Assembly: GCA_031425655.1 (NCBI GenBank)
Contig: JANPJS010000024.1
Coordinates: 1-21,340 of the forward strand
From: Abditibacteriaceae bacterium
Lineage (GTDB): Bacteria; Armatimonadota; Abditibacteriia; Abditibacteriales; Abditibacteriaceae
Length of the DNA stretch: 21,340 nt
Direction: 5' to 3'
In this document: in pieces, positions 1,918 to 21,335 of the stretch
How the letters are laid out: each line of letters starts with the position of its first letter
How positions within the stretch are numbered: the first letter of the stretch is position 1
The notes under the pieces: generated by a model
Seen by the model: only the letters and a program-made list of their open reading frames with translations
The model's database searches: none
Told to the model about the DNA's origin: nothing
Translations under genes and position numbers: made by a program

Positions 1918-1951
1918 TTTTCAACGGGAGCTTACGTTGTTAGAATATAAT
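1918..1951 (+). promoter_or_regulatory. Putative sigma70-type promoter for the Calx-beta gene pair
   Basis: TTTTCA (1918-1923), 17 bp, then TAGAAT (1941-1946) preceded by TGn. An overlapping TATAAT sits at 1946-1951, inside the divergent intergenic gap. Confidence 0.35.
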
Positions 1952-2020
1952 AGCGATACCACCAGAACGCAAGAACCCATAAAATTGTGCCGTCGCGCAA
2001 GGCGAGGCGAAGGAAAAACC

Positions 2021-5000
2021 GTGAAATTTCAAATCTTAGTTCTCACTTTTGTGCTCGGCTTGACCGGCATCATGGCGCCTTCGGCGCACGCGACGGCGAA
2101 TTACATTTTCCACGAGCAAACGAGCAGTTTCGTGGCAACGCCGACTTGCCCCGATGGTGGCACCGATGTCACGGCGGGGCGCTACGTGGACAACGTAGAT
2201 CGTAGCAACATGGCGGGTTTTCAAGTGTTTTCTTCGGAAACTTACAGCCTGCGCGGCAAGATCGAATTTCAGTTTTTCACCGATCAAGTCAAGGTTTATT
2301 ACACCACCGACGGCACCGCCCCGGCGGGTGCTTTAGGCGTTGGCACAGGCACTACGCAGGTGATTAACGCCACTTACGCCACCACTTACTCCGATCAAAG
2401 CCAAAGCTGCGGCGTGATTGACGTGATTTCGGCGCAAATTCCCGCTCAACCGGTCGGCACTACGGTGAAATACATTATCGGCGCTTATCACACGGGCGGC
2501 GGCGACGAAATCTTCGCTAATAGCGGCACCTGCGCGACTTGCACCGCTTGCACAACCGCCTCGTGCGCAACGCTTTTTGAATATCAATCCATCGCTTCCA
2601 CGCTCACGGTCAACAGCCTGGCCGACCCCGGCGATGGCACTTGCGATGCGCTGGGAACCGGCGACGGCTGCACTTTCCGCGAAGCCCTGCAAGCCGCCAA
2701 TAACCTGACCGGGCCGGTCACAGTGGGCTTCGCTGCGGGCCTCAGTGGCACGATTGCGTTGGGCGATGTGCTGCCTTTTATAATCGCCGACGTTTCGATT
2801 CAAGGCCCCGGCGCTAATTCGATTACCGTTCAGCGCAGCGCGACAGCCGAATTTCGCATCTTCACGATTTCCAATTTTGCCACGCCCGGCCCGACGGTCA
2901 GCATCAGCGGCCTGACTATCGCGGGTGGCAAGGCCAGCGGCACTGCGCCCGATAACTGGGGCGGCGCGCTTTATAACGATCACGGCACGATTACCCTGCA
3001 AAACTGCGTTTTCAGCGGCAACAGCGCCGATCAGGGCGGCGCTTTGGCCAACGACGGTAGCGGCGGCAACAGCGGCACGTTTACCATCACCAATTGCGCC
3101 TTCAACAACAACAGCGCCACTACTTTGGGCGGCGCGGTTTATAATGGCGGCGCCGGAGGAACGGTGGGGGCGACTTTGCGCGGCTGCACCTTCAGCGGCA
3201 ACACGACCAGCGGCTCCAGCGGCTTGGGCGGCGCGCTTTTCAACGACGGTTTCGGCGGCGGCAACGCCACGATGAGCCTGACGAATTGCACGCTGGGCCA
3301 GAACAGCGCAACCGGCAACGGCGGCGCGATTTACAACAGCGGAACCGGCGGCACCGCGGTTTTGAGCCTGACAAGTTGCACCTTCAATCAGAATAGCGCG
3401 CCGGGCGGCGGCGCGGTTTACAACGACGGCAGCAACTTCGGCTCGGCCACGCTCACTCTCGGCAATACCCTTTTCAAAGCCGGCGCGACGGGCGGAACCT
3501 TAACCAATAATTTCGGCGCCATCACTTCCAGCGGCTACAACCTGAGCAGCGATGCCGCCAACGGCGATGCCCAAACCGCGCCCGGCGGCTTCTTGAACGC
3601 GACGGGCGACCTTCGCAACACCGACCCGCTGCTGGGCGCTTTGGCCAATAACGGCGGGCCGACGCAAACCATCGCATTACTCAGCGGCAGCCCGGCGCTG
3701 GATAAAGGCAAAGATTTGGGCACAATCGGCACCGATCAACGCGGCAGGACGCGTCCTTATAATAACAGCGCGGTGCCCAACGCCAGCGGCGGCGACGGCA
3801 GCGACATCGGCGCCTACGAAGAACAGCAGCCCACGATTTCCATCGCGGACGTTTCCATCGCCGAAGGGAATAGTGGCCCGACGAACTTAGTTTTCACCGT
3901 TACGCTCTCGCAATCTTCGCCGCAAGCGACAACCGTGGCTTACGCAACCGCGAATGGCACGGCAACGGCGGGCAGCGATTATGCCGCGACAACCGGCACG
4001 CTGACGATTCCGGCCAATCAAAGCAGCGCAACGATCAGCGTGCCGATTAGCGGCGACACGACGGTAGAACCGGCTGAAACTTTTGTGGTGAATTTGACCA
4101 CGCCCACCAATGCCACCATCGCCGATAATCAAGCGACGGGCACCATCACCAACGATGACCAGGCCACGCTTTCGATTAACGATGTTACGGTTGCGGAAGG
4201 AAACACGGGCACGACCAACCTCAGTTTTACCGTCACGCTGTCGCAGGCGATTTTGCAAAATGTGACCGTCAATTATGCCACGCAAGACGGCACAGCGCTT
4301 CAGCCCGCCGATTACACAGCGGCCAGCGGCGCCCTCACTTTCACGCCGGGAGGATCGCTGACCAGAACCGTCACTCTCGCGGTTAAAGGCGATACGCTTG
4401 ATGAAATCAACGAAAATCTGCGAGTCAACCTGTCCGGCGCAGTGGGCGCCACGATTTTCGACGCGCAGGGCATAGGAACCATCACCGACGATGATCCCAA
4501 TGCCGTTTTGACGATTGGCGACGTGACTTTCAACGAAACAACAGGCCCGGCCAGCAACGCGACGTTCAGGCTTACGCTTTCGCCGGCCAGCGGAAAAACC
4601 GTGACCATCAACTACACCACCGCCGACGGCACCGCCAAGCAGCCGGACGATTACATTGCGCGCAGCGGCTCGCTTGTGTTCCTGCCCGGCCAGACCACCA
4701 AAACCCTCACGGTCGGCGTGAGAAACGAAAATATAGACGAAGAAAACGAGTTCTTCAAAATCAACCTGAGTGGTATCGGCGGCGCAACCTTAGGCGATAA
4801 TCAGGGCATTTGCACGATTGTGAACGACGACACGTCGGCCATTTCCATCAACAACGTGACGATTATCGAAAACGATTCCGGCCCCAAGAACTTGAAGTTC
4901 ACGGTCACGCTTTCCAACCCGAACAGCCGCAATGTCACGGTTGCCTATGCCACCGCCGACAATACAGCCACAGCGGGCAGCGATTACGTGGCGACATCGG

Positions 5001-5539
5001 GCACCGTGATTTTCAATCCCGGCCAACTCATCAAGACCTTCATCGTGCAAAGCACCGGCGATTTGTTGGACGAAAACAACGAAACGTTTCTTATCAATCT
5101 GAGCAGCCCGGTCAATGCCGTCATCAGCGATGCTCAGGGCATCGGCACCCTCAACGATGACGATCTGGCTCCCACGCTTTCGATTAGCGATGCTGTCATC
5201 GCCGAGGGAAACAGCGGCACCGCCAATGCCACGTTTACAGTTACGCTCTCGGAAGTTAGCGGGCGCCCGGTCAGCATTAATTTCGCCACGGCTGACGGCA
5301 CTGCCAAGCAGCCGGACGATTACAATGCGCTTACGGGAACCGTAACCTTCGCGCCCGGCCAGACCAGCAGAACGATTGCGATTGGCGTCAAAGGCGACAC
5401 GATTGCGGAGCCGAACGAAACCTTCAGGGTCAATCTCAGCGGCGCGGTTGGTGCCAATATCGCCAATAATCAAGGCATCGGCACGATCACTAACGATGAT
5501 GCGGCGCCGTTGTTGTTTGAGGACGAGCCGAGCGAGTAA
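2021..5539 (+). CDS. Large secreted/surface protein: N-terminal YYTTDG beta-domain, CSLREA-like motif, beta-helix/polymorphic-repeat region, choice-of-anchor-Q-like domain, 5 Calx-beta repeats
   Basis: Start moved to GTG 2021 (AAGGA upstream, followed by signal peptide MKFQILVLTFVLGLTGIMAPSAHA). TVNSLADPGDGTC...CTFREAL; repeated GGA(L/V/I)(Y/F)N and FSGN motifs; DPLLGALANNGGPTQT...SPALDKG...DQRG...DIGAYE; five SIxDxxxxEG...GTIxxDD repeats from ~3827. Confidence 0.9.
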   Translation: MKFQILVLTFVLGLTGIMAPSAHATANYIFHEQTSSFVATPTCPDGGTDVTAGRYVDNVDRSNMAGFQVFSSETYSLRGKIEFQFFTDQVKVYYTTDGTAPAGALGVGTGTTQVINATYATTYSDQSQSCGVIDVISAQIPAQPVGTTVKYIIGAYHTGGGDEIFANSGTCATCTACTTASCATLFEYQSIASTLTVNSLADPGDGTCDALGTGDGCTFREALQAANNLTGPVTVGFAAGLSGTIALGDVLPFIIADVSIQGPGANSITVQRSATAEFRIFTISNFATPGPTVSISGLTIAGGKASGTAPDNWGGALYNDHGTITLQNCVFSGNSADQGGALANDGSGGNSGTFTITNCAFNNNSATTLGGAVYNGGAGGTVGATLRGCTFSGNTTSGSSGLGGALFNDGFGGGNATMSLTNCTLGQNSATGNGGAIYNSGTGGTAVLSLTSCTFNQNSAPGGGAVYNDGSNFGSATLTLGNTLFKAGATGGTLTNNFGAITSSGYNLSSDAANGDAQTAPGGFLNATGDLRNTDPLLGALANNGGPTQTIALLSGSPALDKGKDLGTIGTDQRGRTRPYNNSAVPNASGGDGSDIGAYEEQQPTISIADVSIAEGNSGPTNLVFTVTLSQSSPQATTVAYATANGTATAGSDYAATTGTLTIPANQSSATISVPISGDTTVEPAETFVVNLTTPTNATIADNQATGTITNDDQATLSINDVTVAEGNTGTTNLSFTVTLSQAILQNVTVNYATQDGTALQPADYTAASGALTFTPGGSLTRTVTLAVKGDTLDEINENLRVNLSGAVGATIFDAQGIGTITDDDPNAVLTIGDVTFNETTGPASNATFRLTLSPASGKTVTINYTTADGTAKQPDDYIARSGSLVFLPGQTTKTLTVGVRNENIDEENEFFKINLSGIGGATLGDNQGICTIVNDDTSAISINNVTIIENDSGPKNLKFTVTLSNPNSRNVTVAYATADNTATAGSDYVATSGTVIFNPGQLIKTFIVQSTGDLLDENNETFLINLSSPVNAVISDAQGIGTLNDDDLAPTLSISDAVIAEGNSGTANATFTVTLSEVSGRPVSINFATADGTAKQPDDYNALTGTVTFAPGQTSRTIAIGVKGDTIAEPNETFRVNLSGAVGANIANNQGIGTITNDDAAPLLFEDEPSE

Positions 5540-5542
5540 TCA

Positions 5543-5626
5543 TGGAGCGCCGTTTAAGGAGCGTCGGCATTCTGCCGGCTCCGTGCCACCAAGGTGGCGG
5601 CGCAACATAAAACGACCGGCGCTCCA
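5543..5626. repeat. Branched palindromic (REP-like) intergenic element
   Basis: Outer 10-bp perfect inverted repeat TGGAGCGCCG (5543-5552) / CGGCGCTCCA (5617-5626). It encloses hairpins GGAGCGTCGGCA-TTC-TGCCGGCTCC (5558-5582) and GCCACC-AA-GGTGGC (5585-5598). Confidence 0.6.
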
Positions 5627-5653
5627 AGCGCCACCGCCGTAAAGGAGAATCCG

Positions 5654-7813
5654 ATGTTGATTCAAACACTGAAAGCAAAACTCGCCGCATTCCTGCGCCC
5701 CGCGCTGTGTGGCCTCATGGTTTTTGCAACGGCGACATGGAGCATGCCCACGGAGGCGCAATCCTGCACGGCACCACCGAGTGGTTCTGTGAGTTGGTGG
5801 CGCGCCGAGAACAATGCTCTGGACAGCGTCGGCGCCAATCACGGCACGCTGCAAAATGGCGCAACCTTCGCGGTGGGCAAAGTCGGGCAGGCGTTCAGCT
5901 TCGATGGCGTGAATGATAATGTCGTCGTGTCTGATGCTCCTTCGTTGAACCCAGCGAACGCGATTACCCTCGAAGCGTGGGTTTTCATTACCGGCAAAGA
6001 CGGTGAAGATCGCGACATTATCTCCAAAGACGGCGAAAGCATTGACCGGCAATATTTGCTCACAGCCGGCGTCTCGAACAAGTTTCGTGCTCATATCGGA
6101 GTGCCTGGTGGGCTGATGTTTTTTGATGGCTCGACCTCGGTGACGCTCAACACTTGGTATCATGTGGCTATGGCGTATGATGGCGTGGCGCTCAAGCTTT
6201 ATGTGAACGGTGTATTGGATGGGTCTTTGCCGGTCACAGGTGACATTATCACGACTTCCCAACCTGTGCGCATAGGCGGAGGGGCGCCTGCGTTAGAGGC
6301 ACTGCATTTCCCCGGCCTTATTGATGAGCCAGCGATTTACAACCGCGCGCTCTCCGCTGCCGAAATCCAAGCCATTTTCAACGCGGGCAGCGTTGGCAAA
6401 TGCACCACGCCGGTGGTAAGTATCAGCGACGCGACGGTGACGGAAGGCAACAGCGGGACAACCAACGCCACCTTCACCGTGACGCTCAGCCCGGCCAGCG
6501 CGCAGACGGTCACGGTGGATTACGCTACCGCCAACGGCACGGCGACACAACCAGGCGACTACACGGCGCAACCGACCACCAAGCTGACTTTCACTCCTGG
6601 ACAGACCACCAAAACTTTCACCGTGCCGATCATCGGCGACGTGCTGGACGAGCTGGACGAGCGATTTTCGGTGGATTTGTCCGCCGCCACCAATGCCTCA
6701 ATTGCCGATAGTCAAGGGTTTGGCTACATCAGGGACGACGACGCTGAGCCTTTGGTGAGCATCAGTAACGTGACCGTGCTCGAAGGCGACAGCGGCACGG
6801 TGAACGCGGTTCTCACCGTCACTCTTTCAGCGCCCAGCGGCCGGCCGGTGAACGTGTTCTTCGACACCGCCAACGGCAGCGCTGTCGCTCCCGGCGACTA
6901 CGAATCGGTGGCGCTGACGCCGCTGCCATTCGCGCCCGGCGAGACGTCAAAAACGTTGGCGTTTGGCGTCGCCGGCGACATCACCGACGAGGCGAATGAA
7001 ACCTTCAACGTCAACCTCAGTTCACCCACCAGCTCAACGCTTCTTGACTCGCAGGGCGTGGTCACCATTACCGATGACGACGTCAGCATCACGGTCAACA
7101 ATCCGCGTTCGCTGCGCGAAGGCAATGTTGGTTCGTCCGGTTCGGTCACGTTCGACATCACGCTCAGCGGCACCCCTACGCAAACGGTGACCGTCAACTA
7201 CCAGACGACCAACGGCATCAACAACCCGGCAATAGCGGGCAGCGATTATGTCGCCAAAAGCGGCAAAGTCACGTTCTTGCCGACTGACACTGGACTCGCC
7301 CTCACGAAGAAGGTAACCATTCAGTTCATTGGCGACAGCACCGTTGAACTGAACGAAACCTTCTTCTTTGATTTGAAAACGCCGACTAACGCAACGATTG
7401 CCGACAGTCGCGGCGTAGGCCAGATCAACAACGACGACGGGCCGGGCATTACCATTAGCAACGCCGTCACCATCAACGAAGGAAATGCTGGCACTTCATC
7501 CCAAACCTTCATCGTAACGCTCTCGGCGGCTTCGACCAACACCGTCACCGTAGATTGGACAACGGCCAAAAACACCGCCGACACAGCCGATTACGTCGCG
7601 GCTTCGGGCAGGCTCACTTTCCTGCCCGGCGATCCGTTGAGTCAGACCATTACGGTGCTGGTGAAAGGCGACACGAACGTTGAGCCGAATGAGACTTACA
7701 AAGTCGCCCTGAGCAAGCCGACCTTCGCCTTCCTCGCCGATAATCTGGGCATCGGCACCATCCGCAACGACGATGCAGCCGCACTGATTTTCCAAGACGA
7801 ACCTTCGCAGTAG
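5654..7813 (+). CDS. Secreted LamG-like (concanavalin A/jelly-roll) domain protein with 4 Calx-beta repeats
   Basis: Start moved to ATG 5654 (AAGGAG RBS at 5642-5647); signal peptide to TEA-Q. LamG motifs GKVGQAFSFDG, ITLEAWV, WYHVAMAYDG, LYVNG, FPGLIDEPAIYNRALS. Four Calx-beta repeats follow. Confidence 0.9.
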   Translation: MLIQTLKAKLAAFLRPALCGLMVFATATWSMPTEAQSCTAPPSGSVSWWRAENNALDSVGANHGTLQNGATFAVGKVGQAFSFDGVNDNVVVSDAPSLNPANAITLEAWVFITGKDGEDRDIISKDGESIDRQYLLTAGVSNKFRAHIGVPGGLMFFDGSTSVTLNTWYHVAMAYDGVALKLYVNGVLDGSLPVTGDIITTSQPVRIGGGAPALEALHFPGLIDEPAIYNRALSAAEIQAIFNAGSVGKCTTPVVSISDATVTEGNSGTTNATFTVTLSPASAQTVTVDYATANGTATQPGDYTAQPTTKLTFTPGQTTKTFTVPIIGDVLDELDERFSVDLSAATNASIADSQGFGYIRDDDAEPLVSISNVTVLEGDSGTVNAVLTVTLSAPSGRPVNVFFDTANGSAVAPGDYESVALTPLPFAPGETSKTLAFGVAGDITDEANETFNVNLSSPTSSTLLDSQGVVTITDDDVSITVNNPRSLREGNVGSSGSVTFDITLSGTPTQTVTVNYQTTNGINNPAIAGSDYVAKSGKVTFLPTDTGLALTKKVTIQFIGDSTVELNETFFFDLKTPTNATIADSRGVGQINNDDGPGITISNAVTINEGNAGTSSQTFIVTLSAASTNTVTVDWTTAKNTADTADYVAASGRLTFLPGDPLSQTITVLVKGDTNVEPNETYKVALSKPTFAFLADNLGIGTIRNDDAAALIFQDEPSQ

Positions 7814-9920: not shown

Positions 9921-10033
9921 AACCACAGATGAACACGGATAAACACGGATGAAAGCTGAGATAAAAATGCGTTATGAAGCTCAAAAGGCTATTTTCAACA
10001 TCCATCTGTGTTTATCCGTGTTCATCTGTGGTT
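9921..10033. repeat. Palindromic element with arms made of three 10-bp tandem units (copy 1)
   Basis: AACCACAGATGAACACGGATAAACACGGATG (9921-9951) is the reverse complement of 10003-10033 with 1 mismatch in 31. The spacer is 51 bp and AT-rich. Confidence 0.9.
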
Positions 10034-11888: not shown

Positions 11889-12347
11889 ATGAAACATCTT
11901 GCGATCGACTTCGGCAAAAAACGGCTCGGTTTGGCGATTTCCGATGACGACGCGCGCATCGCGGTGCCTTACGAAGTGCGCGAACGGCGCGGATTAAAGC
12001 ACGATGTCGCAGAACTGCTGCAAACGGCCCGCACCTTGCGAGTCGGGCGCGTAGTTTTTGGCCTGCCGCGCCAAAGCGAAGGCGCGGGCCTGCATCACGC
12101 CGAACAAGTGCGAGGTTTGGCGAGCGCTCTCCAAAGCGCCTTTGACCAAGCGCAAATGTCCGTCGAAATCGCGTGGTGGGACGAGCGGTTTTCAACCGCC
12201 GAAGCGTTGGGCAATATGCGAAATATGGGCATTTCGGCGCGGCAAGGGCGGGAAAGCGTGGACGCGCACGCCGCTTCGGTAATTTTGCAGGGCTATCTCG
12301 ACGCGCAACGGCGTGATGAAAATTTGGAAGTTGAGGAGCTGTTTTGA
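11889..12347 (+). CDS. ruvX: YqgF/RuvX RNase H-fold nuclease (putative pre-16S rRNA nuclease / Holliday junction resolvase-like)
   Basis: LAIDFGKKRLGLAISD, VFGLP, WDERFST and VDAHAASVILQGYLD motifs; lies upstream of mltG. Confidence 0.95.
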   Translation: MKHLAIDFGKKRLGLAISDDDARIAVPYEVRERRGLKHDVAELLQTARTLRVGRVVFGLPRQSEGAGLHHAEQVRGLASALQSAFDQAQMSVEIAWWDERFSTAEALGNMRNMGISARQGRESVDAHAASVILQGYLDAQRRDENLEVEELF

Positions 12348-13408
12348 GCGAAGAGCATTCTGGGCGCGGCTCGTGGATCAAAATTCTTTTGCTGGCGCTG
12401 TTCGTATTTTCGATATTGGGCGGCATGGCCGGCTACGTGCGCTGGCGCCATGAAGTGTGGCGCTGGGAGAAAATTCCGATGTCGGATACCGTCGCGCAAG
12501 TGCCCAAAGAATGGAAGCCAGCCGAACTCGCCGGGCGCTTGCGCGACAAAGGCCGCGTGCGCGATGCCGATGCGTTTTTGGAAGCCGCGAAAGAATTGAA
12601 GATTCGCTCAATTGCGCCCGGCGGCTATTTATTGCCCAAAGAAGCCGGGCCGCGCGACTTGGCCCAGCTTTTCAGCAATCCGCCGCAACTGCTAAAAATC
12701 ACGTTTCCCGAAGGCTGGACGGCGGGACAGATCGCCAAGCGACTTACGGCCAAGAATTTTGCGGGCGGCGCCGGCCTGCGTGAACTGGCTTATCCCGCCA
12801 ACGACGCGCCGTCTTCGCTTGAAGGCAAACTGTTTCCCGATACTTATTTTTTGTCGCCTAAAGCGTCCGCCAAAGAAGTGGCGCAGCAGCTTGGCGAGCG
12901 TTTCAAGCAAGTGACGGACAACTTGTCGAAGCCCTTTCCCATCGGCGAAGGCGGAAAACCGTTGACGTTGGACGAAGTGGTGATTTTAGCTTCGGTTGTC
13001 GAGCGCGAAGCCAAACTGCCCGACGAGCGCCCGCTGATTGCCGGCGTTTTGCTTAATCGCCTGCGCAAAGGCATGCGCTTGCAGTGCGATGCAACGGTTC
13101 AATACGCGCGCCGCCGCGCCGTCGAATCGGGCGCTTTGCCCGCAGCGGAAGCCGCCAACGACGGCCAGAAAGCGCGGCTTTTGTTCCGCGATTTGGTGAT
13201 TGATTCGCCCTACAACACTTATCAGCACGCCGGCCTGCCGCCCGGCCCGATTTGCAATCCCGGCGCAGATTCGCTCAAAGCCGCCGCGCAACCCGAAAAG
13301 TCGGAGTATTTTTTCTACGTCATGTCGCCCAAATTAGGCCGCCATCGCTTCGCTAAAACCTTCGAGGAACACAAGCGCAACATCGCGTTGGCGAAGGCCG
13401 AGGAGTAA
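12344..13408 (+). CDS. mltG: Endolytic transglycosylase MltG (YceG family)
   Basis: N-terminal TM anchor; TFPEG, LEGKLFPDTY, LASVVERE, LQCDATVQY, DSPYNTY and GLPPGPICNPG motifs. TTG start overlaps the ruvX stop. Confidence 0.95.
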   Translation: MSEEHSGRGSWIKILLLALFVFSILGGMAGYVRWRHEVWRWEKIPMSDTVAQVPKEWKPAELAGRLRDKGRVRDADAFLEAAKELKIRSIAPGGYLLPKEAGPRDLAQLFSNPPQLLKITFPEGWTAGQIAKRLTAKNFAGGAGLRELAYPANDAPSSLEGKLFPDTYFLSPKASAKEVAQQLGERFKQVTDNLSKPFPIGEGGKPLTLDEVVILASVVEREAKLPDERPLIAGVLLNRLRKGMRLQCDATVQYARRRAVESGALPAAEAANDGQKARLLFRDLVIDSPYNTYQHAGLPPGPICNPGADSLKAAAQPEKSEYFFYVMSPKLGRHRFAKTFEEHKRNIALAKAEE

Positions 13409-13434
13409 GAATTTCAGGCTCGAATCCAGTAATT

Positions 13435-13929
13435 GTGCGACAACTGGCGCAAAGCGATATTGGGCTGCTCACGCGCGTTTTCGGCACGCCTCTAACGTGG
13501 TGGAGCACGCGCCGCCAGTTTCAAAACTACTGGCAGGAACAGCAAGCCGGACAGCGCACCATGCTTTTAGCCCGCTGTGATAATGAAATCGCCGGCTACG
13601 TCAATGTGTTGTGGCAGGCGCAGTATGTGGCCTTTCAAGAGGCCGGTATTGCCGAAATCAATGACCTGATCGTGGCCCGAAAATATCGTCGTCGGGGCAT
13701 CGGTGCAACGCTGATGGACGAAGCCGAACAACAAGTGGCAAAGCGTGGCCAGACAGTCGTGGGATTGGGTTGCGGCGATTCGGCTTATTACGATGCGGCC
13801 CGACGCATCTATGCCAAACGCGGCTACGCCCCAGACGGCAGCGGCCCGCAAAAGACGCCGTGGGGCATGATGATTTATATGACTAAATCTTTGCCCGGCG
13901 CCGAATTCGGCGCTGCAAAGTCCGGCTGA
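13435..13929 (+). CDS. GNAT family N-acetyltransferase
   Basis: Acetyl-CoA motif A LIVARKYRRRGIGATLM and motif B ARRIYAKRGY. Start codon uncertain (no clear RBS). Confidence 0.85.
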   Translation: MRQLAQSDIGLLTRVFGTPLTWWSTRRQFQNYWQEQQAGQRTMLLARCDNEIAGYVNVLWQAQYVAFQEAGIAEINDLIVARKYRRRGIGATLMDEAEQQVAKRGQTVVGLGCGDSAYYDAARRIYAKRGYAPDGSGPQKTPWGMMIYMTKSLPGAEFGAAKSG

Positions 13930-13950
13930 TTTTCGTATGGATCAGAAGTT

Positions 13951-14051
13951 TTAGATGTCGAAAATCAAAGCCTGCACTTCTTGCAATTTCACATTACGTT
14001 CGCCGTCGGCTACGGCTTCGATAGCGAGGCGCAAAAGCGGCTCGGTGTTGC
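13951..14051 (-). pseudogene. Orphan second copy of the 3' end of the phosphomannomutase gene
   Basis: 79/101 nt ungapped identity to 14913-15013. Translates as NTEPLLRLAIEAVADGERNVKLQEVQALIFDI* versus NTEPLLRLNLEAANDGERDVRLDEVQALIEAI*. No start codon. Confidence 0.9.
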
Positions 14052-14114
14052 CGGGGCGAGAAACGAGCGAAGGGAGCGAGGCTGCAGGCGGTCGGGTTCA
14101 GCGCCTTGTTAGGC
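14052..14114 (-). mobile_element. Truncated integron attC site (R'' and L'' boxes present, L'/R' arm missing)
   Basis: Minus strand reads GCCTAAC (RYYYAAC) AAGGC GCTGAACC CGACCGCCTGCAGCCTCGCTCCCTTCGCTCG, starting 57 bp after the stop of 14171-14788. No closing GTTRRRY arm; the sequence runs into the manB fragment. Confidence 0.7.
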
Positions 14115-14170
14115 CCGATTGTTGGTTGCTTTAGGCGGACTTGAGTAAGTGCCCTAAAAGTAACCGAACG

Positions 14171-14788
14171 CTATTTTGAGCCAAGCCGCAGAACAGGTTT
14201 CCCTAGCAACTTGTCCAAGTCAAAGTAAAGCATTCGCACCGGACGTAGACGGCTGTCTTGGCTGCTGGCTGTAATGTCTTGCTGGCGCAAGACAGCAACA
14301 GCCAGACGGCCATTACGAATTCCAGCCACGCGCGCGATAGTTTTACGCCATACCTGCCCGCGCTGTGGATGCACTACTGCGATGTGTGGTGCGCCCAATC
14401 CACCATCGGACATTGTCACCACAAACGCGGTTTGACCTGAGCGCGACCGGGCCTCCCGCACATCATCAATCATAAACTCTTCGGCCATCAACTTACGGCG
14501 CTGACCGGAACTTGTATCATAGCGCCAGAGTGACCGGCCTTCATTTTCATATCCACCTGCGCCGTCCGACCCAGCATAGAGAAGGGCGCGTCTATCTGCG
14601 ATGAGCCATGCGTCCCAAACATACTTGGCTACAGCTCGTTCACGTCCATCAATAGTAATGAATAGTGTCCCGCGCGACAGGCCAGAGCCTTCGGGAACAA
14701 TACGTTTGCTTGTAATAGACGCCGCGTGTGCTGCCTGCAAGGAACTTATCGCAACGAACAAAAGAAAACCGACTCGTTTTGGTAGCAT
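14171..14788 (-). CDS. Hypothetical secreted protein, probable integron gene-cassette ORF
   Basis: 205-aa ORF with GAGGAG RBS and signal peptide MLPKRVGFLLFVAISSLQAAHA. Uses codons that are uncommon in the neighbours (CTA, CCA, CGA, ATA, AGT in the first codons). Flanked by GTTGGGC upstream and GCCTAAC downstream. Confidence 0.8.
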   Translation of the reverse strand: MLPKRVGFLLFVAISSLQAAHAASITSKRIVPEGSGLSRGTLFITIDGRERAVAKYVWDAWLIADRRALLYAGSDGAGGYENEGRSLWRYDTSSGQRRKLMAEEFMIDDVREARSRSGQTAFVVTMSDGGLGAPHIAVVHPQRGQVWRKTIARVAGIRNGRLAVAVLRQQDITASSQDSRLRPVRMLYFDLDKLLGKPVLRLGSK

Positions 14789-14844
14789 ATTCTCTCCTCT
14801 TTCTGCTTTAACAGGATGACAAAAGTTAAAGCCGCGCGCAAGCA

Positions 14845-14863
14845 GCCCAACAAGTGATTAGAC
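14845..14863 (-). mobile_element. attI-like integron recombination simple site
   Basis: Minus strand GTCTAAT-CACTT-GTTGGGC: L box, 5-bp spacer and a perfect GTTRRRY core, the geometry of the attI simple site. The core is complementary (6/7) to the downstream attC inverse core GCCTAAC. Confidence 0.55.
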
Positions 14864-14912
14864 CGCAAAATTTCGGCGCGAAAATAGGCGTTCGTGCAGC
14901 CTCAAAGCGGGC

Positions 14913-16277
14913 TTAAATTGCTTCAATCAAAGCTTGCACTTCGTCCAACCTCACGTCGCGTTCGCCGTCGTTGGCGGCTTCGAGATTGAGGCGCAAAAGC
15001 GGTTCGGTGTTGCTCGAACGCAGGTTGAACCACCAATTCGGCATTTGCACAGTCAGGCCATCGAGATGGTCGAGTTTCGCGCCTTGCGCCGCATAATGCT
15101 CCTCGATAGTTCGCAAGATTAAAGGCGCGTCGGCCACGCGAAAATTGATTTCTCCAGTTGCCGAGTAGCGGCGGAGCGGCGCAATCATGTGCGACAGCGT
15201 TTGGCCGTCTGCGCGGCGCCAGATATTCAGCACTTGCAAGAGCGCCATCAGGCCCGAATCGGTGTTGAAGCACTCGCGGAAGTAATAATGGCCCGATAAT
15301 TCGCCGCCGAAAGGCGCGGATTTTTCTTTCATCAACCGCTTCATAAACGAATGCCCGACGCGGCCTCGAACCGGAACGCCGCCACGCTCTACGATGGATT
15401 CGGGCACAACCTGCGACGAGCGCAAATCGTAGAGAATCGCGCTGCCGGGAAAGCGTTCCAGCATTGCGCCGGCGATAAAAGCCGTGATTAAATCGCTGGA
15501 AATGCTGATCCCACGCTCGTCCACGAACATACAGCGGTCGGCATCGCCGTCGAAAGCCACGCCGAAATCGCAACCGTGCTGCAGCACGGCTTTTTCCACG
15601 TCGCGCAGGTTTTCGGCTTTAAGCGGGTCGGCTTCGTGATTGGGAAACGTGCCGTCCAATTCCCAGAAAAGCGGCACTAATTTCAGCCACGGCAGGCGCC
15701 GCGCCAGTTCGGGCAAAAAGAAGCCGGCCATGCCATTTCCGGCATCAATGGCGACTTTTACCGTTGCATCGCCCGGTTCGGCGAAAGGCGTCATGAAATC
15801 GAAGTATTCGCCTAATGCGTTTTCGACGTGCCGCACGCTGCCGCTTTGCGCCGTCGCCAAATCGGCGCCGGATTCGGCGCGTAGCACGAAGGCTTCGACT
15901 TTATCCAGTCCGGTCGAAAAATCGAGCGGCGCGGCGTTCGCGCCGCTGACTTTGAAGCCGTTATATTTCGGCCCATTGTGCGAAGCCGTGACCTGAACGC
16001 TGCCGCCGCTGTTGTAGTGGACATTCGCCCAATAATTCATGGGCGTGGCGGCCAAACCGATGTCAATCACGTCGCAGCCGCCTGCGCCTAAGCCGCGAAT
16101 GAGTTCAGCGGCCATTTCGGGCGAATGCGTGCGCATATCGCGGCTGACCACGATGGGCCGTTTTTCACCTGAAAATACTTCGGCGGCCAAACCGCGCCCG
16201 ATGAGATAAGCGCGCTGGGCGCTCAAACCGTCGCCGACCACGCCGCGAATGTCATACGCCTTGAAAATACCGCTCAT
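14913..16277 (-). CDS. manB: Phosphomannomutase/phosphoglucomutase (alpha-D-phosphohexomutase)
   Basis: IFKAYDIRG start, catalytic TASHN, metal-binding FDGDADR, sugar-binding GELSGH and C-terminal RSSNTEPLLRLNLE motifs; follows manC. Confidence 0.95.
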   Translation of the reverse strand: MSGIFKAYDIRGVVGDGLSAQRAYLIGRGLAAEVFSGEKRPIVVSRDMRTHSPEMAAELIRGLGAGGCDVIDIGLAATPMNYWANVHYNSGGSVQVTASHNGPKYNGFKVSGANAAPLDFSTGLDKVEAFVLRAESGADLATAQSGSVRHVENALGEYFDFMTPFAEPGDATVKVAIDAGNGMAGFFLPELARRLPWLKLVPLFWELDGTFPNHEADPLKAENLRDVEKAVLQHGCDFGVAFDGDADRCMFVDERGISISSDLITAFIAGAMLERFPGSAILYDLRSSQVVPESIVERGGVPVRGRVGHSFMKRLMKEKSAPFGGELSGHYYFRECFNTDSGLMALLQVLNIWRRADGQTLSHMIAPLRRYSATGEINFRVADAPLILRTIEEHYAAQGAKLDHLDGLTVQMPNWWFNLRSSNTEPLLRLNLEAANDGERDVRLDEVQALIEAI

Positions 16278-16303
16278 TTTTGCTCGCTTCCCAAAAAGAT
16301 TTC

Positions 16304-16435
16304 AACCGCGGATGAACGCGGATAAACGCGGATATTTTAGGGAATCGGCCTTAAATGAGAGCACTATGCCCAACTTTCAGGCTCTCATTTCCCAAATCTA
16401 AAATCATCCGCGTTTATCCGTGTTTATCCGTGGTT
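16304..16435. repeat. Palindromic element with arms made of three 10-bp tandem units (copy 2), with additional inner stems
   Basis: AACCGCGGATGAACGCGGATAAACGCGGAT (16304-16333) pairs with 16406-16435 (27/30). Inner IRs ATTTTAG/CTAAAAT (16334-16340/16398-16404) and AAATGAGAGC/GCTCTCATTT (16353-16362/16381-16390). Confidence 0.9.
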
Positions 16436-16446
16436 AAAAATTGAAT

Positions 16447-17871
16447 TCAGCGCCCGTAAACGTCTTCGGTGCGCACGATGTCGTCTTCGCCTAAATACGG
16501 CCCCGACTGCACCTCGATGAGGTGCAACGGAATACGTCCGGGATTGTGCAGGCGGTGCATAGCGCCCAAAGGAATATAAATAGATTCGTTTTCCGAGAGC
16601 AATCGCACGGTATCGTCAACCGTCACTTCCGCCGTGCCGCTGACCACGACCCAGTGTTCGGAGCGATGATGGTGCATTTGCAGCGAAAGTTTTTCGCCCG
16701 GCTTGACCGTGATGCGCTTGACTTGAAAGCGTTCGCCGGCTTCGACGCCTTCGTAACTGCCCCACGGACGATAAACCAAACGGTGATCCTGATGTTCGCC
16801 GCGCTTTTCTTTTTGCAGCCATTCCACAACTTTTTTCACGTCCTGCGACTTGTCTTTGCGCGCGACGAGAACGGCGTCGGTGGTCTCGATGATGATTAAA
16901 TCCTCGACGCCCACAGCGGCCACAAAACGGCGGTCGGCGTTGATGTAGCAGTTGCGCGTGTCGTGCAAAAAGGTCTCGCCGCGCGCGACGTTGCCGTTGG
17001 CGTCTTTGGCTTGATGATCCCACAAGGCCGACCACGAGCCAACGTCGCTCCAACCGATGTCGGCGGGCACAACCGCCGCGTGCGCGGTTCGTTCCATGAC
17101 CGCGTAATCAATCGAGAGCGCCGGACACGCGCCGAAGGCTTTTTCTTCGAGCCGGTAAAAGTCCAAATCCTGATAAGCGTTAGTCAGCGAGGCGCGGCAG
17201 GCGGCAAGAATTTCGGGCGCGAACTGCTCCAATTCGCGCAGCAACATTTGCACTGGGAACACGAACATTCCGCTGTTCCAATAATAGTTACCCGATGCAA
17301 GATAGCTCTGCGCCGTCGCCAAATTGGGCTTTTCAACGAATTTGGCGACTGTGTAAGCACCCGAATCTTCATCGGAAGCGGACGGCAGCGCATCGCCGCG
17401 TTCGATATAGCCGTAGCCGGTTTCGGGCTGCGAAGGCACGATGCCGAAGGTGGCTAAATGGCCTTGCTCTGCGACTTTCGCGGCTTGTTTTACGCATTGC
17501 TGAAACGCCGGCACGTCGGCGATAACGTGGTCGGAGGACAGCACCAAAAGCAGCGCGTCCGGGTCGAGTTCGGCCAAATAAAGCGCGGCGACAGCAATCG
17601 CGGGCGCGGTATTGCGTCCGACGGGTTCCAGCATCAGAACTTGCGGCGCGATTTCGATTTCGCGCATCTGCTCGGCCACTAAAAAGCGGTGTTCGTGGTT
17701 GCAAACCATGACCGGAGGCGCCAAGTCGGGCAATCCGGGCAAGCGCAACAGGGTTTCCTGAAGCAGGCTAAGCTCCGAAGTGAGTGCCAATAATTGTTTG
17801 GGAAACGCGGTGCGCGACAAAGGCCACAAACGCGAACCGCTGCCGCCGCTGAGAATGACGGGATGAAGCAT
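16447..17871 (-). CDS. manC: Mannose-1-phosphate guanylyltransferase / mannose-6-phosphate isomerase (type II PMI-GMP)
   Basis: PVILSGGSGSRLWPLSR, EPVGRNTAPA, FVEKP, WNSGMF, SIDYAVME, WSDVGSW, and cupin RPWG...LSLQMHHHRSEHWVVV...EVQSGPYLGEDDIVR motifs. Confidence 0.96.
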   Translation of the reverse strand: MLHPVILSGGSGSRLWPLSRTAFPKQLLALTSELSLLQETLLRLPGLPDLAPPVMVCNHEHRFLVAEQMREIEIAPQVLMLEPVGRNTAPAIAVAALYLAELDPDALLLVLSSDHVIADVPAFQQCVKQAAKVAEQGHLATFGIVPSQPETGYGYIERGDALPSASDEDSGAYTVAKFVEKPNLATAQSYLASGNYYWNSGMFVFPVQMLLRELEQFAPEILAACRASLTNAYQDLDFYRLEEKAFGACPALSIDYAVMERTAHAAVVPADIGWSDVGSWSALWDHQAKDANGNVARGETFLHDTRNCYINADRRFVAAVGVEDLIIIETTDAVLVARKDKSQDVKKVVEWLQKEKRGEHQDHRLVYRPWGSYEGVEAGERFQVKRITVKPGEKLSLQMHHHRSEHWVVVSGTAEVTVDDTVRLLSENESIYIPLGAMHRLHNPGRIPLHLIEVQSGPYLGEDDIVRTEDVYGR

Positions 17872-20293: not shown

Positions 20294-21219
20294 AGTTTCG
20301 TTTTGTCGCTTCGTGCGCCGTTGCGTTAGTTCCCTTCGTCGCCCTCGCCGGATGCTCACCGCAAGCTCTTAAAAACGCCGTCAAAGACGCCGTTGTCAAA
20401 AGGAAGGCTGCCATTCCTCCGCGCGCCTTGCCAACTCGCCTCGAATGGCGCTCGCAGCCGGAGGTGCCTCGCGCCGGGCTGCCTGCCATCTGGAGCCTGA
20501 AAGTGCTTGATTTAACGACCAAGAAGGACAAACCCAAAGGCGTGCGCTCGTATGAAACGCCGCGTGTGATGCCTATGCACTTGTTTGTGGTATCGCGCGA
20601 TTTGTCGCGCTTTGTGCATTATTATCCAAACCTGCGCGATTACGGCAATTTCCTGCTGCGCCCAGTCATCCCCGAACCCGGCGCTTATCAACTCTTCGTG
20701 GATTATGTGCCGATTGGCTTACTAACGGAGGTGCCCGGTTTTCCGACCGTGCAATCGCAGCGATTTTTAGTGGCCGGCGATAAACCAGCGCCTGCGCCGC
20801 AAAAACTGATGCCGGACAAGCCTCAGAACGGCTGGCTGGTGCAGCGCGTGCAAAGCCGCGTCGAGCAGGAATGGGCGCCCGCCGCCGACGCGCCCTTCTA
20901 CGAAGTGCAACTGCAAGACGCCGCATGGCAGGCCAAACGTGAACTCACATTGCGTGCGCGTGTGTTGGATGCCGCCAAGTCTCCGGTGCCGAATCTTGGA
21001 TTGCACTTAAAAGGCGTGGCGTATGGCGTCGCTATTTCGCAGGATGGACAGCAATTTGTGCGCTTGGAAGCGGCCAAAGAGCAGGCGTCCGGCGAAATTA
21101 TCTTCAAAGGCACGTTTCCCGTAGCCGGAATTTACAAAATCTGGCTCGAATTCAATCACAATAACCAACTTATTCTCGCGCCATTTACCGTGCGCGTTGC
21201 GCCGAAACGGTCGAATTAA
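20290..21219 (+). CDS. Putative lipoprotein with two duplicated beta-sandwich modules (MHLxxVSRDL family, often annotated as heavy-metal-associated secreted protein)
   Basis: Lipobox LAGC; MHLFVVSRDLSRFVHYYP...PEPGAYQLFVDY and a second module VAISQDGQQFV...FPVAGIYKIWLEF. ATGA overlap with the upstream gene. Confidence 0.7.
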   Translation: MKFRFVASCAVALVPFVALAGCSPQALKNAVKDAVVKRKAAIPPRALPTRLEWRSQPEVPRAGLPAIWSLKVLDLTTKKDKPKGVRSYETPRVMPMHLFVVSRDLSRFVHYYPNLRDYGNFLLRPVIPEPGAYQLFVDYVPIGLLTEVPGFPTVQSQRFLVAGDKPAPAPQKLMPDKPQNGWLVQRVQSRVEQEWAPAADAPFYEVQLQDAAWQAKRELTLRARVLDAAKSPVPNLGLHLKGVAYGVAISQDGQQFVRLEAAKEQASGEIIFKGTFPVAGIYKIWLEFNHNNQLILAPFTVRVAPKRSN

Positions 21220-21247
21220 CCACGGATGAACACGGATTAACACAGAT
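21218..21247. repeat. Left arm of 10-bp-unit palindromic element (copy 3)
   Basis: AACCACGGATGAACACGGATTAACACAGAT overlaps the stop codon of the upstream gene. The right arm is not within the window. Confidence 0.85.
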
Positions 21248-21335
21248 AATTAAGATAAGTTGCTACCTGCTTAGCCGGGCGGCTTCAGCCGCCCGGCACC
21301 AAAAAGCGCCGATAGGTAGCAACTTGGGTTAATTA
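21247..21335. mobile_element. Small MITE-like unit: terminal inverted repeats enclosing a GC hairpin
   Basis: AAGTTGCTACCT (21257-21268) / AGGTAGCAACTT (21314-21325) is a perfect 12-bp IR, extended by TAATTAA/TTAATTA. Inner perfect stem GCCGGGCGGC-TTCA-GCCGCCCGGC (21274-21297). The window ends in TAACCCA, the reverse complement of TGGGTTA, suggesting a second unit starts there. Confidence 0.6.

Follow-up and report, generated by a model that had tools for sequence, protein, structure and literature searches.

The question raised by this locus is how the 3' end of a housekeeping gene came to be present twice, once in place and once as a detached copy beyond an insert. The window analysed is one whole contig of 21,340 nt (GenBank accession number JANPJS010000024.1; assembly GCA_031425655.1) out of the 327 contigs of a metagenome-assembled, 97% complete, 6-Mb genome of an Abditibacteriaceae bacterium (G000). 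The gene (coordinates 14913 to 16277, reverse strand) lies downstream of manC (coordinates 16447 to 17871) and encodes an intact manB-like phosphomannomutase/phosphoglucomutase of 454 amino acids (aa) with the PGM_PMM I to IV domains. Its best NCBIfam match, PRK09542, scored 462 bits, below the cut-off of 618 for that family; no curated cut-off was reached, and the name manB used here rests on the manC context.

The end attached to manB (coordinates 14913 to 15013) and an orphan tail of 32 codons and a stop (coordinates 13951 to 14051, same strand) were realigned and found to match without gaps at 79 of 101 nt and 23 of 32 aa. Both copies are in frame and have their TAA stop in the same position, and over the first 26 nt, at the junction-proximal end, they agree at 25, as the original prediction for this DNA had reported; the longest identical run is below 20 nt. 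The pair was recovered by blastn against the 6-Mb genome with an E value of 5e-19, and no third copy of the tail was detected in the genome by blastn. As the two other phosphohexomutases of the genome are only 26-27% identical to manB, the orphan is not the end of a paralogue, an origin that had been considered at the outset.

The duplication of the manB 3' end is real. A Logan contig of 11,335 nt, built by a second assembler, spans positions 12300 to 16500 at a depth of 11.8 with 0 differences, and contains no joint that skips the insert; the run concerned is possibly the window's own source, and the agreement checks the assembler rather than adding a second sample. Runs from a second study yielded only short contigs (depth 2-3), one of which covers positions 13827 to 13978 with 1 difference and extends 28 nt into the orphan, bridging nothing, and others of which match manB at 91-98% and are not assignable to a single organism. 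A candidate joint between 14049 and 15018 in run X1 (depth 3) was rejected, as it reads as another organism's manB motif.

The 861 nt that separate the two tails are an integron gene cassette, flanked at its start by an attI-like site and ending in a cut attC. The original prediction had described one foreign-looking gene without an integrase, and the insert (GC 0.54, against 0.58 for manB) does contain a single open reading frame (ORF) of 205 aa and, according to family profile searches, no recombinase; the integron features had been overlooked. The attI-like core (coordinates 14845 to 14870, reverse strand) consists of an L box, a 5-nt spacer and a G^TT R box at 14851, the same motif as in the site linked to the integron integrase gene intI. 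The motif begins ~45 nt from the manB stop, and the G^TT is 62 nt from it. The genome has 18 matches to the motif, two shuffled versions have 4 and 0, respectively, and an attC lies within 2 kb downstream of 10 of the 18. An upstream inverted arm with 16-nt spacing is present in 5 of the 10 attI-like sites, including the intI-linked one, and is absent from the site in the window. Eight more solo attI-like sites, with 1-10 cassettes each and no intI nearby, were seen on contigs C16, C54, C100, C131, C193, C211, C243 and C326. The IntI of this genome (TIGR02249, 428 bits) is encoded on a different contig, next to an array with attC of the same family, and IntI was found in 13 of 27 family genomes.

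The cassette (coordinates 14052 to 14851, reverse strand) starts at the G^TT at 14851, and its first 23 nt are identical to those of the first cassette in the intI-linked array. Its own R' and R'' are complementary at 6 of 7 nt, and 8 of 10 cassettes in the C211 array reach 6 or 7. At the other end only the left 63 nt of an attC remain (coordinates 14052 to 14114), comprising R'' (14114 to 14108), L'' and part of the loop; L' and R' are missing and are replaced by the orphan manB tail, which is joined to the remnant via 2 shared bases. The remnant is 91.5% identical over 59 nt to a complete family member, and a model of 30 complete attC recognised it over the left two thirds alone, with 30 bits (E 2.9e-6), whereas a complete attC from the training set scored 89 bits. 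A complete attC has R''-L''-L'-R' able to fold, and here the right arm is absent; the first attC is complete at the nine other attI-like sites. The insert is thus a cassette remnant and not a mobile cassette, and with L' and R' missing IntI would be unable to excise it. Full-length forms are known for either end of the cargo. As the cut lies inside attC, where IntI does not act, it is likely that the cassette was moved or fixed by host recombination.

It is proposed, with what we judge to be about an even chance of being right, that the insert was added without an integrase by one-sided homologous recombination in manB, using DNA from a relative, with an illegitimate joint inside attC. A cassette would have been present at a solo attI-like site just behind manB in a related lineage, and a fragment of that DNA would have entered the cell, possibly by transformation, and recombined homologously within manB, giving the gene the donor end. 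At its far end, broken in the attC loop, the fragment would then have been attached to the resident manB by an illegitimate joint, 101 nt ahead of the resident stop, where a short GC microhomology precedes the recipient's own gene end. This would have cost the recipient no DNA; its old end would have moved 861 nt downstream together with the terminator hairpin, and would have decayed since. Replacement of the 3' end by incoming DNA, as the original prediction had put forward, is retained as the best reading; its independence from an integrase holds for the last step only, as the cargo is an integron cassette and IntI is encoded elsewhere in the genome.

The donor-type layout is realistic, as an attI-like site follows manB in 2 of 20 relatives, both of another genus, with different first cassettes and without duplication. 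In G014 (L048:1430-2437) manB is followed by the attI-like site and one complete cassette, with no tail duplication, and the site was also seen behind manB in G024 (L014:2860-3060). The attached end keeps NLEA, which is invariant in 20/20 relatives, and would be the incoming replacement, while the orphan is taken to be the resident end from its position and from the GC hairpin behind it (coordinates 13889 to 13920; fold z -2.7). The same hairpin motif lies behind manB in 3 of 20 relatives, which belong to one genus and are not independent, against 3 of 592 other ORF ends, and the hairpin is probably the old manB terminator. The direction of transfer and the position of the crossover are inferred, no donor having been found. 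The genome carries comEC and dprA, families that also match in 10-11 of 14 control genomes, and Ku was not found in this 97% complete genome.

Displaced ends of this kind were sought across the genome using our own gene calls (4,530 genes), with the ends and middles of the 3,647 genes of at least 150 aa as probes. Partial same-strand copies within 8 kb were counted, dispersed repeats and copies inside paralogous genes were dropped, and 5 further long copies were set aside. Tail copies were found downstream of 36 of the 3,647 genes (42 copies, a few of them doubtful) and upstream of 2 (P 5e-9). For head copies the counts were 14 genes upstream and 4 downstream, and for mid-gene copies 0 and 1. 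This polarity is as expected if the gene stays whole and the old end is pushed outward. The tail repeats are short, with a median length of ~70 nt and 39 of the 42 in the range of 42 to 127 nt, and have a median identity of 91%; as the manB pair is among the most diverged of the 42, the event at manB is probably old. The median insert is 1.1 kb, no common motif was found at the junctions of the 42 tails, and attC is present in only 2 of the 42 inserts; the second (L248:300-1560, contig C102 of G000) has an attC that is worn but complete, in the opposite orientation and scoring 33.7 bits.

Stacked tails with differing start points occur at four genes, up to four tails per gene, and manB has one. 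Four and two stacked tails, respectively, were seen at L249 (G000 C70:21340-24200) and L250 (C267:9696-14100), and the C267 gene is presumably a glutamine synthetase, a label taken from its C-terminal motif. A 2,257-aa ORF (G000 C306:29500-42600), which we take to end in a SecA-like metal-binding motif, has its displaced tail 6.2 kb downstream. In samples of relatives, the same procedure gave downstream tails at 1 of 541 genes in G003, at 1 of 336 in G002 (a doubtful case) and at 2 of 230 in G012 (doubtful in both cases), compared with 7 of 844 genes in a sample of G000 (P 0.22). An orphan manB tail was present in none of the manB regions of 20 relatives, some of which end at short contigs. 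In G022, manB is split over two reading frames (L055; C267:5859-6342), by a frameshift or an assembly error. The suggestion that manB is a hotspot, with stacked tails or other cargo to be expected behind it in other strains, was therefore rejected; the scar itself is of a known kind and common in this genome, and there is no reason to single out manB.

A newly made duplicate that decays neutrally would show a ratio of replacement to silent substitution rates (dN/dS) of about 1. Pooling the 36 ungapped tails of the 42, with the 6 gapped ones left out, gave 154 silent and 102 replacement differences and a dN/dS of 0.17 (P 3e-37), which argues that the tail class arose by exchange between working alleles. 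The displaced tails would thus preserve traces of earlier alleles and of gene flow within an uncultured lineage. For manB itself, the claim of two functional alleles holds only in part. The two tails are read as an allele difference plus later decay of the orphan, which differs from the attached end by N9A and L10I at residues invariant in 20/20 relatives.

Several findings weigh against one-sided recombination with DNA from a relative at manB. Searches of metagenome contigs and relatives revealed no donor, close relative or empty allele, and full-length manB of the relatives reaches no more than 72% identity. Separate trees for the 5' and 3' parts of manB (18 rows) showed no mosaic and no switch towards the two attI-bearing relatives. 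The manB pair alone has a dN/dS of 0.47, on only 22 changes. For all 20 relatives the attached tail is the nearer of the two copies, and the orphan bears 9 of 10 polarised first- or second-position changes, observations that are also predicted by duplication in place followed by decay. The presence of recJ and mutS means that no repair defect explains the frequency of displaced tails. In the accounts given in PMC3240628, joints formed by homology-facilitated illegitimate recombination (HFIR) usually have 3-10 bp of microhomology and insertion is usually coupled to a deletion of about the same size, whereas only 2 bases are certain at this joint and the insertion is additive, with a 101-nt duplication. 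With a manB variant that occurs in 2 of the 20 relatives, agreement with the loop of the attC family would reach 8 of 9 nt. Metagenome contigs contained 0 matches to a degenerate pattern covering both manB tails, a query with the manB C-terminus detected one locus (47%), and the 48-aa frame holding the orphan had no protein match among 110 candidates in what was a weak search.

The same donor DNA could also have arrived as a trimmed fragment that circularised, making the attC-to-tail joint, and then entered by a single crossover in the shared tail, in which case both tails would be chimeras of donor and recipient. This possible but somewhat doubtful route leads to the same product and is additive by nature, and the stretch with 25 of 26 nt identical would be a natural crossover zone. 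In the E. coli experiments covered by PMC3240628, it gave duplications of 109-950 bp and was ten times more frequent than HFIR. However, repeats as short and diverged as those of the tail class would be expected to be poor substrates for a lone crossover.

A long target duplication in place, in which an attI core, a cassette and half an attC were inserted while ~145 nt of the resident end (tail, spacer and half hairpin) were copied and the spare copy decayed, is unlikely. It accounts for the excess of derived changes in the orphan, including those at invariant sites, and for the region behind the two stops, where the spacers align weakly (P 0.013 against shuffles and 0.03 against 4,495 post-stop regions) and both reach the same hairpin. 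Behind the attached tail only the left half of this hairpin is present (coordinates 14868 to 14880, reverse strand), identical over 8 nt to the hairpin that follows the orphan, before it runs into the attI-like core; this half is compatible with a homologous donor end and equally with duplication in place. The original prediction had also taken the intact frame of the orphan as an argument for functional alleles, but an open frame with its stop was kept in 35% of random-decay simulations, and the frame is weak evidence. Other features of the pair are rarely produced by uniform random decay, namely the 8 multi-hit codons (P 0.002), the first 24 nt with at most 1 change (P 0.01) and the 23 identical residues (P 0.013). 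Duplication in place also requires two illegitimate joints in one event, and does not agree with the low dN/dS of the tail class.

It is very unlikely that the insert is what remains of an integrase-driven island of the e14/icd type that targeted the manB 3' end and later lost its integrase. A restored gene with a displaced fragment is the standard island scar in the part of the literature represented by PMC4383910, and identity does peak at the junction-proximal end. However, attC sequence reaches right up to the repeat with no arm region left, the 42 inserts had no match to three tyrosine recombinases of this genome, the recombinase type searched, the stacked tails at four other genes have different boundaries, and the inserts are small.

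Joining of the cassette by IntI to a secondary, attG-like GTT/AAC triplet inside manB is still less probable. The genome has an IntI, the orphan starts 2 nt before an AAC triplet, and use of minimal GWT sites by IntI is described in the portion of bioRxiv 10.1101/2022.09.11.507474 that bears on this. Against this, the joint is in the attC loop, where AAC occurs in 0 of 30 complete attC, and its strand is not the one on which R' would be cleaved; only 4 of the 42 tails start with AAC/GTT, with ~5 expected by chance, and a diverged duplicate would be left unexplained. Least probable of all is an assembly chimera of two strains, for although the genome is metagenome-assembled with a depth of about 12 here, the second-assembler contig spans the region without differences or a joint that skips the insert and the copies share no identical run of 20 nt.

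A broader possibility, put forward tentatively, is that additive recombination at the ends of housekeeping genes moves integron docking sites as well as genes. A solo attI-like site and its first cassette would be copied into a new chromosome without IntI, an insertion sequence (IS) or another mobile element, leaving the cassette locked and the new site loadable by a distant IntI. In this family the end of manB would repeatedly serve for docking, as judged from the attI-like sites behind manB in this genome and in two from a different genus, and solo attI sites and clusters of attC sites lacking an integron integrase (CALINs) would have an origin not listed so far. Provided that the attI-like site is still functional, integron docking sites could be distributed over a chromosome in the absence of their integrase. 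A repeat of the displaced-end type is present at only 1 of the 9 solo attI-like sites in this genome; among genes the share is about 1%.

The cargo ORF (coordinates 14171 to 14788, reverse strand) had no Pfam or NCBIfam match. It begins with a hydrophobic, signal-peptide-like helix, and its product is predicted to be a secreted partial beta-propeller protein. The AlphaFold model has a predicted local distance difference test score (pLDDT) of 92, and its structure matches are propellers (best Z 10.4, root-mean-square deviation 4.1, 131 residues aligned), none of which stands out to indicate a specific fold family. There are 25 homologues, the best 68% identical, and the gene occurs in 2 of 26 other family genomes. 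No promoter-like site was found in the insert, and transcription reading through from manC-manB would express the cargo. The family attC model, which is lineage-specific so that a lack of matches is no evidence of absence, matched 1 of 80 loci with cargo homologues and gave no match next to the gene at the 2 family loci. A distant homologue at L177:3001-5987 is followed on the same strand by three weak attC-like matches, a probable cassette array in another bacterium.

The convergent gene beyond the orphan (coordinates 13435 to 13929, forward strand) encodes a GNAT acetyltransferase (PF00583) and is patchily distributed (7 of 26 other family genomes). Over positions 13889 to 13929 its ORF continues through the GC hairpin, which falls within its last codons, and family homologues mostly align only to residue 154-159; the last residues may be read-through. 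Elsewhere in the window, an intergenic family of palindromic repeats, paired or single with ~39-nt arms of short tandem units, is found at 9921 to 10033, 16300 to 16439 and 21214 to 21251, and is matched by many other contigs in the sequencing runs searched. Large Calx-beta repeat proteins are encoded at 1937 to 5539 and 5594 to 7813, and also on G000 contigs C13, C128 and C302; they share a conserved acidic C-terminal end (..EPSE/..EPSQ) that is possibly a sorting signal.

Among known systems, the elements e14 and phage 21 in icd of E. coli reportedly supply a replacement 3' end and displace the old one. The restored gene and displaced fragment at manB resemble this, but the insert has neither an integrase nor a fixed att core. 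HFIR, as far as PMC3240628 and PMC2884548 describe it, shares with manB a homologous anchor at one end, an illegitimate joint at the other and a kilobase-sized foreign insert with no dedicated enzyme; the products described there lose about as much as they gain, whereas the manB locus loses nothing and has its gene end duplicated. HFIR has been proposed for the C-terminal displacement at rhs loci (PMC2935791) and type VI secretion system (T6SS) effector loci (PMC5361080), where, in the cases set out, an intact gene with a new end and cargo, stacked old ends and variable start points are likewise seen. Those loci are dedicated ones with a variable toxin tip and an immunity gene, whereas here the near-equivalent end of a housekeeping mutase is concerned, at one of 36 unrelated genes.

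The long target duplications of Furuta and colleagues (PMC2853133) have repeats of more than 30 bp, inserts below 20 kb and no mobility gene, which agrees with the 101-nt repeat and 861-nt insert here, and the cases of restriction-modification genes that the report covers are mostly from naturally competent hosts. The insert differs in carrying an integron cassette without R and M genes, and its repeats agree at 78%, where the flanks of the cases in that account agree at about 93-100%. No report of an attI-like site and a cut attC between displaced ends of a housekeeping gene was found in the literature searched, which lay mostly outside subscription journals.

Single attC sites lacking an integron integrase (SALINs) and CALINs likewise have cassettes outside an integron with IntI elsewhere in the genome. 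A CALIN has at least 2 attC without a nearby intI, and the window holds one partial attC. At manB the attC is amputated, an attI-like site stands in front and the duplicated end of a host gene brackets the cassette, and the insert is neither a CALIN nor a clean SALIN. The origins listed for these elements in the sections available of bioRxiv 10.1101/2022.09.11.507474 and PMC4889954 are integration at secondary sites, loss of intI and IS rearrangement, and the displaced-end route is not among them. What is new here is the integron anatomy of the insert, in which the cargo is a locked cassette with a sequence like a docking site.

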